Of a stretch of 26,620 bases of DNA, positions 3,060 through 23,831 are shown piece by piece. Position 1 is the first letter of the stretch. Each line of letters starts with the position of its first letter. A program made the position numbers and the translations under genes. This stretch comes from a virus (taxonomy: Duplodnaviria; Caudoviricetes), in IMG/VR virus record IMGVR_UViG_3300020416_000059, positions 1 to 26,620 of that record, one strand, 5' to 3'. The notes under the pieces are model-generated. The model saw only the letters and a program-made list of their open reading frames with translations. It was not told the DNA's origin and ran no database searches.

Positions 3060-3173
3060 TTATAAATCAGTTCCTCCTGTTTCTACTACTTCCACGATGT
3101 CATCAAGCACTGATAACAATTCATTGCCATTGTTTGTAGAGTCTAGCAGGAACTCGGCAAAATTAGGTGACAT
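3060..3173 (-). CDS. acidic microprotein (37 aa, MSPNFAEFLLDSTNNGNELLSVLDDIVEVVETGGTDL)
   Basis: translated by hand; same strand as neighbours, fills gap. Confidence 0.6.
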   Translation of the reverse strand: MSPNFAEFLLDSTNNGNELLSVLDDIVEVVETGGTDL

Positions 3174-3199: not shown

Positions 3200-3287
3200 A
3201 CTGGACTTACAAAAGTGCTTGTATGTTTCTCGGATTAACTTAGTAGGATAACCCCACAAATCCGCATAACCTACACTTAACGCCAGT
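3200..3287 (-). other. extended intergenic RNA hairpin
   Basis: nested stems 3200-3204/3283-3287, 3213-3217/3274-3278, 3231-3236/3259-3264, 3243-3247/3253-3257. Confidence 0.5.
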
Positions 3288-5981: not shown

Positions 5982-6039
5982 AGTTTACATGAAAAAACCC
6001 CTAGTGTCAAGGGGTTTGGACAGTTCGATGACTGTCACA
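5982..6039 (-). promoter_or_regulatory. early promoter cassette copy 7 (terminator-like hairpin carrying the -35)
   Basis: TTGGACAG-N8-CTGTCACA 6016-6039; minus strand AAACCCCT-tgacact-AGGGGTTTTTT; TTGACA 6005-6010, 17 bp, TAAACT 5982-5987. Confidence 0.8.
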
Positions 6040-6229
6040 CAGTCACACCTGTCTCCTTTAGAAGTAGTTTAACAAATCCCTCCAGATATACTAGAGGTAA
6101 GATCACTAACTCAAGTCCATTCAACTCAGTTAGATTTCTTTTCTTTGTTTCCACCTTAATAACATCTTGCTTAGGTTTCGCAGTTGTTGTTTTGCGTGTC
6201 CTACGTTTGCGAGGTGTTGTTGTTGTCAA
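6035..6229 (-). CDS. small protein, basic N-terminus and hydrophobic C-terminus (64 aa, TTG start)
   Basis: ORF track; lies directly downstream of the structured RNA. Confidence 0.6.
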   Translation of the reverse strand: MTTTTPRKRRTRKTTTAKPKQDVIKVETKKRNLTELNGLELVILPLVYLEGFVKLLLKETGVTV

Positions 6230-6253: not shown

Positions 6254-6502
6254 TGTTAGAGGGAAAGGGGCATCAACATAGGTTTCACCTATATGCCCAA
6301 ATTTACCTACTGGGAATCGCTTACACCTGAACCCCTACTAAACAGCAAGTAATCATATAAGGAGTGTACATTGGCAGATGTCTGACTTATGCTAACTTGT
6401 TTACCAAGTCTAATTAAAGTCTCAGGGATGCCAATGTATGCCGTATCCAAAATGATTGAACCCTTGCTGAGTTCGGGCAGTAGAACCTTTATCCCTCCAA
6501 CA
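6254..6502 (-). ncRNA. candidate ~250-nt structured non-coding RNA or long 5' leader
   Basis: at least 8 mutually compatible stems; 5' end coincides with the predicted start site of promoter 6508-6535. Confidence 0.7.
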
Positions 6503-6507
6503 ATATT

Positions 6508-6566
6508 ATTATACATCATTCAAAAGGTGTGTCAGTCCATTGTGTGCCACTTCTTCAACTGGTACA
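6508..6566 (-). promoter_or_regulatory. early promoter cassette copy 8 (within the MTase 3' end)
   Basis: TGTGCCAC-N8-CTGGTACA 6543-6566; CTGACA 6530-6535, 16 bp, TATAAT 6508-6513. Confidence 0.75.
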
Positions 6567-7468
6567 TGATACTCACTTACTCTCTTCTTAATCAGGTCAC
6601 CATAATTTTCATGCAACTCGCATCCAATATAGTCTCTACCTAGTGATTTTGCTACTGCAGCAGTTGTTCCCGATCCCATGAATGGATCTAGTATGATGTC
6701 ACCCTTCTCGCTTCCTGAGAGGATACAAGGTTCAATTAGTTCAGGTGGATATGTAGCGAAGTGGGCACCCTTATACGGTTTCTTGTTTACTGTCCATACT
6801 GATCTTTTATTCTTCTTTTCGTAAGACTTAGTTAACCCAGTATGAGGGGATAAACCAGTGCCAGGATTATGATACTTCCCTTTACTACGATCTCTAGTGC
6901 CCCAGTCTTTTGCTTGTTCTTTAATTGCTTCATTGTCATAATAATAGTTCTTATTCTTACTCAATAGGAAGATATATTCATGGGATTTAGTACATCTATC
7001 TCTCACACTTTCAGGCATTGGATTAGGTTTATGCCAGATAATATCTTGTCTTAAATACCATCCATCTTTCCTTAATGCAAATGCCAACATCCAAGGTATA
7101 CCAATTAAATCTTTACTCTTTAATCCTTTTAATTTATTCCCTCTAACAGGTGTTTTAGTAGGTAAATCTTGTCTAGTTTTACTTACTGTTTGTTTTGGGT
7201 AATTACCATCACTTCTATAATTATAATAAGAGTCTCCTATATTGACCCATAAAGTTCCATCATCAGTAAGTATATTTCTTACTTCTCGAAATACTTTAAC
7301 TAACTCATCAATAAACTCTTCAGGACTTTGCTCTTGTCCTATTTGTGAGTCTTCCCCACCATAGTCTCTTAGACCATAGTAAGGTGGTGATGTTACACAC
7401 ATTCTTGCCTGTTCATCAAATTGTTTTAAGGTGTCTCTGCAGTCACCGAATAGAATTGTGTCTCTCAT
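6509..7468 (-). CDS. beta-class amino-DNA methyltransferase, likely N4-cytosine
   Basis: N-terminal catalytic motif TSPPY; C-terminal SAM motif DPFMGSGTT; HFATYP. Confidence 0.93.
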   Translation of the reverse strand: MRDTILFGDCRDTLKQFDEQARMCVTSPPYYGLRDYGGEDSQIGQEQSPEEFIDELVKVFREVRNILTDDGTLWVNIGDSYYNYRSDGNYPKQTVSKTRQDLPTKTPVRGNKLKGLKSKDLIGIPWMLAFALRKDGWYLRQDIIWHKPNPMPESVRDRCTKSHEYIFLLSKNKNYYYDNEAIKEQAKDWGTRDRSKGKYHNPGTGLSPHTGLTKSYEKKNKRSVWTVNKKPYKGAHFATYPPELIEPCILSGSEKGDIILDPFMGSGTTAAVAKSLGRDYIGCELHENYGDLIKKRVSEYHVPVEEVAHNGLTHLLNDV

Positions 7469-8202
7469 TAAAATAATTCTGTAAGAGGGTTACTTAAAGA
7501 TCCTATGCGATCTTTTGCTATGTTGTAATACTTTTCATCGTTTTCTATCCCTATAAAGTTTCTATCTGTATTAACACATGCAACTCCAGTTGTACCACTT
7601 CCCATAGTATTATCAAGGACTGTTTCACCTTTATTGGTGTATGTCTTGATTAAATATTCCATCAACCCTACTGGTTTTTGTGTAGGATGTAATCCCTTTT
7701 CTTGCTTATACTTTAATACAGTTTTAGGATAGCGTGATCCTTCAGGATTGTCTCTGTGTCTAGATTGTGCTTCACCATAAACTTCACCAATCTTTGCAGT
7801 ATCAGATTTAAATCCACTGTAAGGAGTTGAATACCACATTTGAGGGTTATATGTTGGTTTCTTTCTATAGAATACCAATATATTCTCATGTGATTTTAAT
7901 GGCATAACTTTGGCATTCATGGGATTAGTTCCTTGAGGTTTTTCCCATATCCATTCGTATTTAAAATTAGAAATATTAGATGATGCTAGGACAGTAGTAA
8001 ATGGTTGAGCAGCAGTAAACACCATTGCAGCATCCTCTTTACATACTCTATTATATTCTTTCCATAGTTTATCTAATGGGATAATACTATCCCACTTACA
8101 TGCAGTTGTACCATAAGGTAAATCTACCAACACCATATCAACTGAATCATCTGCAATTGTAGGTAACAAATCCAAACAATCACCGAGCAATAAACTAGTC
8201 AT
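7468..8202 (-). CDS. beta-class amino-DNA methyltransferase, likely N6-adenine
   Basis: catalytic DLPY, HPTQKP, LDNTMGSGTTG; TAATG coupling to the next MTase. Confidence 0.92.
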   Translation of the reverse strand: MTSLLLGDCLDLLPTIADDSVDMVLVDLPYGTTACKWDSIIPLDKLWKEYNRVCKEDAAMVFTAAQPFTTVLASSNISNFKYEWIWEKPQGTNPMNAKVMPLKSHENILVFYRKKPTYNPQMWYSTPYSGFKSDTAKIGEVYGEAQSRHRDNPEGSRYPKTVLKYKQEKGLHPTQKPVGLMEYLIKTYTNKGETVLDNTMGSGTTGVACVNTDRNFIGIENDEKYYNIAKDRIGSLSNPLTELF

Positions 8203-8206
8203 AAAT

Positions 8207-8743
8207 TTACCATTCAGAAATATCCTTCACGAAATCACATTCTAGCAGAAGATTGACTTTTGTGCAAATGTAGTCATCATTACCAATAGATTTACCACCT
8301 TGTTGAACATTGAATAAACAATCATCACTCTTGAGGTGTGCTTCAAAATCTTCTTTAGTAATAAACACAATGCGAGCATCTTTTTCATTAGGATTGATAC
8401 CACAGAAAATGAGTCTCTCCCAGTCTTTACCTACAGAAACATGATTGATAATAAATTTATCTTTATTCACCCCACCCTTCTTGTTACGAGTGGCAAGTGA
8501 GAATTTAATCTCTGTTTTTATACCATCAATTATTCTATCGTGACCTGCAGTTGATGTCTCTGCACGTTTTACAGCATGGTCAGCAATTAGCATATAGTAT
8601 GATACAAATCTCTCTCCAAATTCACCTTTTTGTTTTGGTGACATAAAAACATAACCCTTGAACGGAGTATCTTCCCAAGGATCTTGTACGTTAGAGTCAA
8701 TGTAGTTGCGTAACGTGCCAGTAGAGAAGATTGATTCAAACAT
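8207..8743 (-). CDS. putative PD-(D/E)xK endonuclease
   Basis: KGEFGE helix followed by HD...EIK; 4 bp from the MTase gene. Confidence 0.6.
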   Translation of the reverse strand: MFESIFSTGTLRNYIDSNVQDPWEDTPFKGYVFMSPKQKGEFGERFVSYYMLIADHAVKRAETSTAGHDRIIDGIKTEIKFSLATRNKKGGVNKDKFIINHVSVGKDWERLIFCGINPNEKDARIVFITKEDFEAHLKSDDCLFNVQQGGKSIGNDDYICTKVNLLLECDFVKDISEW

Positions 8744-19154: not shown

Positions 19155-20477
19155 TTAGAATCCTGCGTAGAAAAACTGTTGTTGTCTGGTTCTGCCAATT
19201 AGAGTAGCAGCACCAATACCAGAACCAAATGTGATGTCATCGACATTTACGTTTGTCGTAGAAAGTAAAGTCGCATCAGCGTCTGGGAATCTGATGGTTC
19301 TATTCGCAGTAATGTTGTCTGCGTTAATTGTGAGAATATTAGTACTTGAAGTAGTGTTCTTAATACTAGGGTTAACTAAAGTTTTACCCGATAAAGTTTG
19401 AGTTGCCGCTTCAGATACAAAAATATTGTTGCTTCCACCATTATTTAGAACCCCAGTTTGAGGGAACTCAAAGGTTTGGTTTGATGATGAGTTTTGATTG
19501 TCAATAGAAAAAGTAATCTTTTTACTATTGTCTCCAGAATCCTGAAGAATCAAGTTTTCAATAGATTTGTTTTCAAGAATTTGTGTTGAATCTGTACCAA
19601 CCAATGTGAGGTTAGTATCAGGTACACTGATTATTCTGTTTGCTGTAAGTGCATCCGTGTTAAAGGTTGCAGTAGAAGTGTTAAGTTCAGAGTCAGCAAC
19701 AAGTGACAGGTCTACAAAAGTTTTGTTGAGGACAGTTTGCTCTGCCTTTGTATCAAGTAAAGTTGATGAAGTTGCAGTTGGTTCAAGAGTCGTTGTTACT
19801 GTACCTGCATCAGGTAAGAAATACGATCTTCTAGTACCAGAAGTTTCTGCCCAGTTAATTTGAAAGACTGCTTCTTCAGCACCATCAGTGATAACAAGAC
19901 TATCTTCATCAATGAGAATGGTCTTGTTTCTTAATGTTTGTGATGTATCATCACCAACTAAAGTTGTACCATTACCAGAAGTGATAGCAGGCAATGTCAT
20001 AATTCTGGTATTAGTACCAGTACCAACATTACTTACCTCAAATCTTGCTTTCGGACCTTGAGCATCCTCAAGAGTAAAAGTTTGATCTGAGATGATGAAG
20101 TTACCTGTAATTTTTACAGCACCAGTTCCTTTTGGTGAAAGGACAATATCCGCATTAGTTGCGGTATCATGTACTGCAGTAATGTACAGAGATTTATAAC
20201 TCTCTGAATTTGAAATAGTAGTCATATATAAACCACTATTACCAAAACCAAGACCTATTTCATCATAAGCACTTTGATATAGACCAGTATCTCGGTCTAA
20301 ATCGAAACATAAACCAGGTGCTGCCTTTGTACCTTGGGCAACCCCTTTATGAAGTTGGTTGATTTTAACTTTTCTGTTGGGAATCAAAGGATCAGACACC
20401 ACAACGGGTAGGATACCTTCTCCTGAGAGATTAGCATCTGAAATAACATCCAACTGAGATATTTTTCTTGTTCCCAC
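19155..20477 (-). CDS. virion structural protein with internal repeats (440 aa, GTG start)
   Basis: KISQL N-terminus; about five R..TLP....TLVG....QTL.NK repeats. Confidence 0.8.
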   Translation of the reverse strand: MGTRKISQLDVISDANLSGEGILPVVVSDPLIPNRKVKINQLHKGVAQGTKAAPGLCFDLDRDTGLYQSAYDEIGLGFGNSGLYMTTISNSESYKSLYITAVHDTATNADIVLSPKGTGAVKITGNFIISDQTFTLEDAQGPKARFEVSNVGTGTNTRIMTLPAITSGNGTTLVGDDTSQTLRNKTILIDEDSLVITDGAEEAVFQINWAETSGTRRSYFLPDAGTVTTTLEPTATSSTLLDTKAEQTVLNKTFVDLSLVADSELNTSTATFNTDALTANRIISVPDTNLTLVGTDSTQILENKSIENLILQDSGDNSKKITFSIDNQNSSSNQTFEFPQTGVLNNGGSNNIFVSEAATQTLSGKTLVNPSIKNTTSSTNILTINADNITANRTIRFPDADATLLSTTNVNVDDITFGSGIGAATLIGRTRQQQFFYAGF

Positions 20478-23747: not shown

Positions 23748-23831
23748 TAGGAGTAGGGGGACTTGAACCCCCACGAGGTTGCCCTCAACAGATTTTAAGT
23801 CTGGTGCGTCTACCAATTCCGCCACACTCCC
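23748..23831 (-). tRNA. trnL: tRNA-Leu, anticodon UAA
   Basis: GGGAGTG/TACTCCT acceptor stem, GGAATTGGTAGAC D-arm, CAGA-CTTAAAA-TCTG anticodon arm, long variable arm, GTTCAAG T-loop; CCA not encoded. Confidence 0.96.

Follow-up and report, generated by a model that had tools for sequence, protein, structure and literature searches.

An uncatalogued cyanophage RNA family built on a conserved three-way junction with nested, exchangeable modules

What lies between the methyltransferases and the helicase of a marine cyanophage, where no gene is annotated? The DNA analysed here, referred to as the window, is a 26,620-nt fragment of a T4-like marine cyanophage with minus-strand genes (IMG/VR record IMGVR_UViG_3300020416_000059). 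The gap at 6254-6502 is flanked upstream by two N6/N4 DNA methyltransferase genes and downstream by a 64-aa gene followed by a helicase gene, and its closest DNA matches are in Prochlorococcus phages P-SSM2, P-SSM5, P-RSM6 and P-TIM68 and in single-cell marine viruses. The original prediction, made from the sequence alone, was of a structured RNA with its own promoter that fills the gap. The methyltransferases form a tandem pair behind a 178-aa unknown gene (phrog_6927) in a segment (6509-8743, minus strand) that resembles a restriction-modification-type cluster. The elements bordering the gap are:

6508..6535, minus strand: sigma70-type promoter (-35 box 6530-6535, -10 box 6508-6513), overlapping the methyltransferase stop codon
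6035..6229, minus strand: 64-aa gene downstream of the RNA, with no assigned function, likely co-transcribed; relatives at 16 loci
5995..6017, minus strand: terminator-like hairpin after the 64-aa gene, overlapping the next promoter

The -10 box is TATAAT at 6508-6513 with CTGACA 16 nt upstream, and 11 of 12 consensus positions are matched. No family in Pfam or PHROG was found for the 64-aa gene.

The gap encodes a real, minus-strand folded RNA consisting of a three-way-junction core and a P3 arm with nested modules. The core comprises P1, P2, P4 and a near-invariant 20-nt bulge, and the P3 arm carries a 146-nt insert. Along the transcript, P1 is followed by a 3-nt linker, the 6-bp P2, P3, the 20-nt bulge, an 8-nt linker and P4, which joins P1 through a 0-nt linker. 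Counts below refer to 163 unique full instances pooled from viral and metagenome loci, with incomplete loci and genome_contigs loci set aside.

6487..6502, minus strand: closing helix P1, 5′ strand, at the predicted transcription start
6478..6483, minus strand: P2, 5′ strand, 6 bp; fully paired in 162 of 163 instances
6463..6477, minus strand: P3, 5′ strand, with the GAA of a loop-E-like internal loop (6472-6474) and then a 7-bp stem
6333..6349, minus strand: P3, 3′ strand, with AGUA (6336-6339)
6313..6332, minus strand: near-invariant 20-nt bulge with a UG(U/C)AA pentamer at 6321-6325; at most two mismatches in 109 of 109 true matches of an independent anchor
6307..6312, minus strand: P2, 3′ strand
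6299..6306, minus strand: 8-nt junction strand between P2 and P4, which lay within the search anchor
6268..6298, minus strand: P4 arm with apical loop G-UGAAA-C (6283-6287)
6254..6267, minus strand: P1, 3′ strand

P2 occurs in nine sequence types, and its one exception to full pairing is by appearance a chimera. P4 occurs with 30 stem sequences; its 5′ arm measures 9-10 nt in 158 instances and its loop is present in all 163. The GAA/AGUA internal loop of P3, which we take to be a loop-E motif, is found in 70 of the 163.

Every stem listed in the original prediction is present at its coordinates, and the three-way junction with its nested P3 insert replaces the simple rod that had been drawn across the whole gap. 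The proposed stem 6326-6332/6471-6477 forms no more than six of its seven pairs in the transcript, a level attained by only 33 of 163 instances; in the conserved fold 6475-6477 pairs with 6333-6335, the GAA/AGUA internal loop follows, and 6313-6332 is unpaired. The same stem was also considered as the alternative state of a switch, a candidate rejected as incidental on account of its lack of conservation among the 163 instances. The original prediction had further remarked on stem positions that pair as G-T on the plus strand and as A-C in the transcript. For 6328/6475 this oddity vanishes because 6475 is paired elsewhere in the conserved fold. The pair 6365-6366/6439-6440 belongs to an asymmetric internal loop of conserved sequence, and its A-C is replaced by A-U in one relative, a change that on its own is compatible with either strand.

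As the original prediction required of a structured RNA, the feature folds better than shuffled sequences whichever strand is read (z -4.8 for plus, -3.4 for minus), and none of 200 shuffles equalled it. A coarse scan of 106 tiles placed it second, behind a coding tile at 20004-20253 (plus strand) that contains many small hairpins and also gave z -4.3 on refolding; folding energy alone is therefore not proof. Covariation among gathered homologues was decisive for the RNA fold. From 31 members with a short P3, RNAalifold recovered the three-way junction unaided; 17 of 29 pairs showed changes on both sides and 96.9% of cells paired, values matched by 0 of 500 shuffles and falling to 34-58% in slid controls, although the members are related by descent and the counts are therefore not independent events. 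The open reading frame at 6307-6519 is not a gene: its frame is open in 14 of 163 instances, P3 insert lengths fall in all three frames, and searches of Pfam and PHROG gave no match.

Folded as RNA or as DNA, the plus strand equals or surpasses the minus strand. Because G-U outnumbers A-C by 41 to 10 in variable stems read on the minus strand, we assign the RNA to the promoter-driven minus strand even though the plus strand folds to lower energy. The plus-strand folding, together with the movement of modules described below, would suit a selfish or otherwise DNA-level inverted-repeat element with no RNA role. We give that reading very little credence in view of the G-U bias on the transcribed strand, the fixed promoter spacing, the conserved non-paired loops and the presence of mostly one copy per genome.

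A query pattern of 20 bases from 6312-6331 matches about 200 IMG/VR stretches, and an independent anchor made of the neighbouring junction and the P4 loop matches about 250. Among 120 anchor matches that were read, 109 carried the bulge (two changes or fewer) and 11 had arisen by chance. The cultured phage P-SSM2 contains a minimal core at record positions 56699-56819. One copy of the core is present in each of P-SSM2 and five other records, and two copies in one contig; the core is missing from four of the five full-length phage records searched and is thus dispensable. The GTDB cellular genomes gave about 170 anchor matches, which we estimate to be near chance level, and the bulge was found in 0 of the 120 examined. 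Matches with at most one mismatch occurred in 18 of 401 cyanobacterial genomes, and model scoring of 11 such places gave a best E of 0.17; model R1 found no match in three cyanobacterial genomes. Many metagenome contigs (L482-L600) stop no more than about 40 bases from the core, which is what assemblies breaking at variable inserts would produce.

The fixed placement of the core behind a promoter is a family property. A -10 box precedes the core in 79 of 163 instances and lies exactly 6 nt before P1 in 75 of them, against a background of 97/1529 (6%). This bears out the prediction that the fold has its own promoter and begins about 6 nt after TATAAT. In the remaining instances the core stands behind another AT-rich signal (29), behind another module (28), or is unplaced or otherwise situated (27). 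Contigs from seven of eight marine RNA runs (six studies) align to 6260-6470 and cover parts of the element; they derive from related phages in runs chosen for containing the stretch, carry no strand, end or level information, and demonstrate that the sequence occurs in RNA libraries without defining a discrete transcript. Some extend past the 3′ end of the core into the downstream module of relatives. One run (X1) covered the downstream gene only and none of the RNA element; gaps in the coverage of flanking DNA carry no weight either way.

No match to the feature was found with the Rfam 15 covariance models at E<=1, manA, wcaG, abiF, PhotoRC-II, glnA and the ribozymes included; elsewhere in the window the scan returned only tRNA-Leu and a chance snoRNA. 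The tRNA-Leu (TAA) gene is at 23748-23831 (minus strand). Twenty related loci, short-P3 members among them, likewise gave no match at E<=0.5, in agreement with the claim of an unannotated RNA that cannot be assigned to a family. The antitoxin mimic that had also been suggested left no sign that we could find. A search for trans-antisense targets in five small cyanobacterial genomes found no extended complement (best E 0.2), a result that does not bear on short seeds, and 16 tests for rRNA mimicry gave no rRNA-operon match beyond shuffles (lowest p about 0.05, in one operon).

Small ribozymes typically combine an invariant core, covarying stems and a freely variable arm. The present RNA has the same make-up, an invariant core held by covarying stems plus a freely variable arm, and might on that ground represent a new self-cleaving or processing class that trims early transcripts. 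This seems very unlikely to us: no Rfam ribozyme matches even the short-P3 members, and RNA contigs cross the 3′ end of the core into the next module, a weak sign against cleavage. Resemblances to pistol, twister and HDV-like ribozymes were dropped on account of their differing helix order.

Several cyanophage RNAs are known, namely manA, wcaG, PhotoRC-II, glnA, abiF and CfrI (accessible portions of PMC2864571 and PMC9964418). Of these, manA (RF01745), wcaG (RF01761) and PhotoRC-II (RF01717) are likewise orphan, covarying and probably 5′ leaders in marine cyanophages; as described in the available part of Weinberg 2010 (PMC2864571) they are tied to gene classes, whereas the present RNA is gene-independent, nests and swaps its modules, and lacks an Rfam match. 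The same source data yielded candidate RNAs from IMG/VR in Fremin 2023, of which 13 of 35-87 nt have a Prochlorococcus host; the accessible text of that paper (PMC10690425) describes no nested system, a distinction by description only, and some of its candidates may be fragments of the present modules. GOLLD and ROOL, large phage-associated RNAs, are also motif-rich with function unassigned, but the present RNA is smaller, freely recombined, a 5′ leader and without an Rfam match. Accessible portions of PMC2518516 and PMC5082946 do not describe the family, nor did a literature search, whose coverage stopped short of subscription papers such as Doron 2016. Taken together, these results make the feature a genuine member of an RNA family absent from the catalogues, one whose nested and recombining architecture is unusual.

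That architecture resides in the P3 arm, which accepts 101 different inserts of 14-231 nt among the 163 instances. Twelve recurring patterns, defined by eye, appear in 24 combinations, and 35 inserts fit none. In the window the loop-E-like internal loop encloses module C/C2, which encloses module K, which encloses hairpin D:

6436..6463, minus strand: module C/C2, 5′ half, with conserved internal loops; 17 context variants
6349..6369, minus strand: module C/C2, 3′ half
6420..6435, minus strand: module K, 5′ half; five context variants with differing inner cargo
6370..6385, minus strand: module K, 3′ half
6386..6419, minus strand: module D, apical hairpin with a conserved internal loop and a G(U/C)AAA loop; 40 variants

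Module D has 12 stem types with compensatory changes and occurs in three cultured phages, P-SSM2, P-RSM6 and P-TIM68. Modules C and D are also found without the core, C/C2 for example in L015. The same insert is combined with differing P4 arms in nine of ten cases, which points to recombination.

Is the RNA bound to the gene it precedes? The methyltransferase is visible upstream in 11 of the 16 loci with relatives of the 64-aa gene. Among these 11 the start codon lies 49 to 319 nt from the -10 box, the core is present only in the near-identical L007, and the slot between the same gene pair holds other cargo or an almost empty stem in ten. In L017 the slot is reduced to a bare P1 hairpin closed by a 5-nt loop, L015 carries just modules C and D, and L019-L021 lack the slot altogether. 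At L009-L012, L014 and L018, the slot that the core occupies before the 64-aa gene was seen to be filled by other junction-type outer modules. First ORFs behind the core fall into about 26 clusters among 92, at distances of 17-491 nt, as judged by crude ATG-only calling in which some ORFs are false. A dedicated leader of the TTG-start ORF 6035-6229 and a partner of the neighbouring enzymes, both put forward originally, are accordingly not supported: the same slot holds other modules or is nearly empty, which argues against dedicated regulation of the TTG gene and against a tie to the methyltransferases or helicase.

The multiplicity of unrelated downstream genes, at such variable distances and of no common class, also makes an orphan riboswitch-type aptamer unlikely. 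Such an aptamer would sense a metabolite and control downstream genes, as proposed for manA and wcaG, and a cyanophage precedent thus exists (PMC2864571, as far as its accessible text goes). The compact junction, the invariant unpaired bases and the 5′-leader position do have the look of an aptamer-like fold, but no conserved terminator or alternative stem accompanies it, the sole alternative stem being unconserved.

The RNA at 6254-6502 has no terminator of its own, and action in cis on its own message is therefore equally possible. In its gene-agnostic form such a leader would lengthen the life of early phage mRNA or raise its translation, with RNase E/J blockage and ribosome recruitment as two conceivable routes. 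Besides the missing terminator, the start 6 nt after the -10 box and a start codon within 40 nt of P1 in 35 of 92 cases agree with this, and a different Prochlorococcus phage increases the RNase E of its host in the course of infection (available portion of PMC9692554). We hold the cis leader to be possible yet doubtful: at the same gene a bare P1 hairpin suffices in L017 and the slot is dispensed with in L019-L021, and simple shielding needs no dozen modules with nested invariant loops.

The reading that we prefer, with a probability of roughly 0.45, is a conserved 5′-clamped leader, placed immediately downstream of a promoter of the early phage type, that would deliver gene-independent, ligand-binding RNA cargo to host factors early in infection. 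The decoy of the original prediction falls under this reading. Host polymerase would begin a message of about 510 nt with this RNA and finish it at the hairpin 5995-6017, and P1 would shield the 5′ end. Each module would present a fixed binding surface in its invariant loops, and co-infecting phages would recombine through shared stems, so reshuffling modules much like small early genes. Plant RNA viruses offer an analogy in their 3′ cap-independent translation enhancers, whose exchangeable modules bind host factors whatever the gene; these enhancers differ in host kingdom, in location and in sequence, and the likeness is one of analogy only.

The T-loop consensus is U-N-N-R-A. Two such pentamers, UG(U/C)AA and UGAAA, are present in 163 of 163 instances, the conservation of the bulge having been confirmed with the independent anchor. 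Both fit the T-loop description in the accessible part of PMC4810234. With linkers of 0, 3 and 8 nt, the junction is consistent with family C, whose third helix tilts against the first (PMC3575829 and the RNAbridge preprint, as far as available). Family C geometry would shift the bulge in the direction of the P4 loop, which sits on an arm of fixed length. In the predicted core, P1 and P4 would stack, the P2 arm would lean on P4, and the UGUAA and UGAAA pentamers could meet as a T-loop platform for a protein or for RNA of the host, the elbow of a tRNA for example. The pentamers on the arms of a family-C-type junction thus suggest a double T-loop platform, and the predicted geometry would be compatible with interdigitation and tRNA binding; covariation has no purchase on the contact, because T-loop pentamers are short, invariant and common. 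Interdigitated double T-loops in T-box stem I, RNase P and the L1 stalk (PMC4810234, accessible portion) likewise use two U...A pentamers, whose contact in the present RNA is predicted; specifier, antiterminator and catalytic domains are lacking here.

The module loops, which we presume to be GNRA-like and receptor-like, are of the docking type and would also suit building blocks of RNA-only assemblies in the manner of GOLLD and ROOL, and such assemblies exist (bioRxiv 2024.12.08.627333, accessible text). Free shuffling and loss of modules sit badly with one fixed architecture, and this possibility is slight.

The most far-reaching form of the preferred leader-cargo reading is that marine cyanomyoviruses keep a combinatorial repertoire of a dozen or more aptamer-like RNA modules, which fold independently, nest in each other's stems downstream of early promoters, are reshuffled by recombination and each disarm or hijack a host factor, and that the core grips tRNA elbows as a fourth natural double T-loop RNA; this we consider unlikely. 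Prochlorococcus myoviruses are among the most abundant marine viruses, and their early regions have been treated as lists of small unknown proteins. If the proposal is true, leaders that carry a mixed-and-matched, RNA-level arsenal would add a so far overlooked level to host takeover and supply a natural library of compact RNA folds.

Related cassettes lie outside the gap as well. The window contains a second, smaller one in another gene gap:

3200..3285, minus strand: module cassette with a 23-nt module (3239-3261) common to family inserts

Its 23-nt module is one that we presume to be receptor-like, and its folding is no better than that of shuffles. An unlisted short ORF, of a kind often found after cassettes like this one, apparently follows at about 3060-3172. 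P-SSM2 (L480:25815-26117) also has a second unannotated module cassette, directly after an N6A methyltransferase and about 600 nt upstream of the core cassette. In relatives (L023, L030, L042, L064 and others) the core is directly followed by a recurring module with a loop complementary to the stretch behind it, likely forming a pseudoknot, and another module in the same position begins with a purine-rich segment.
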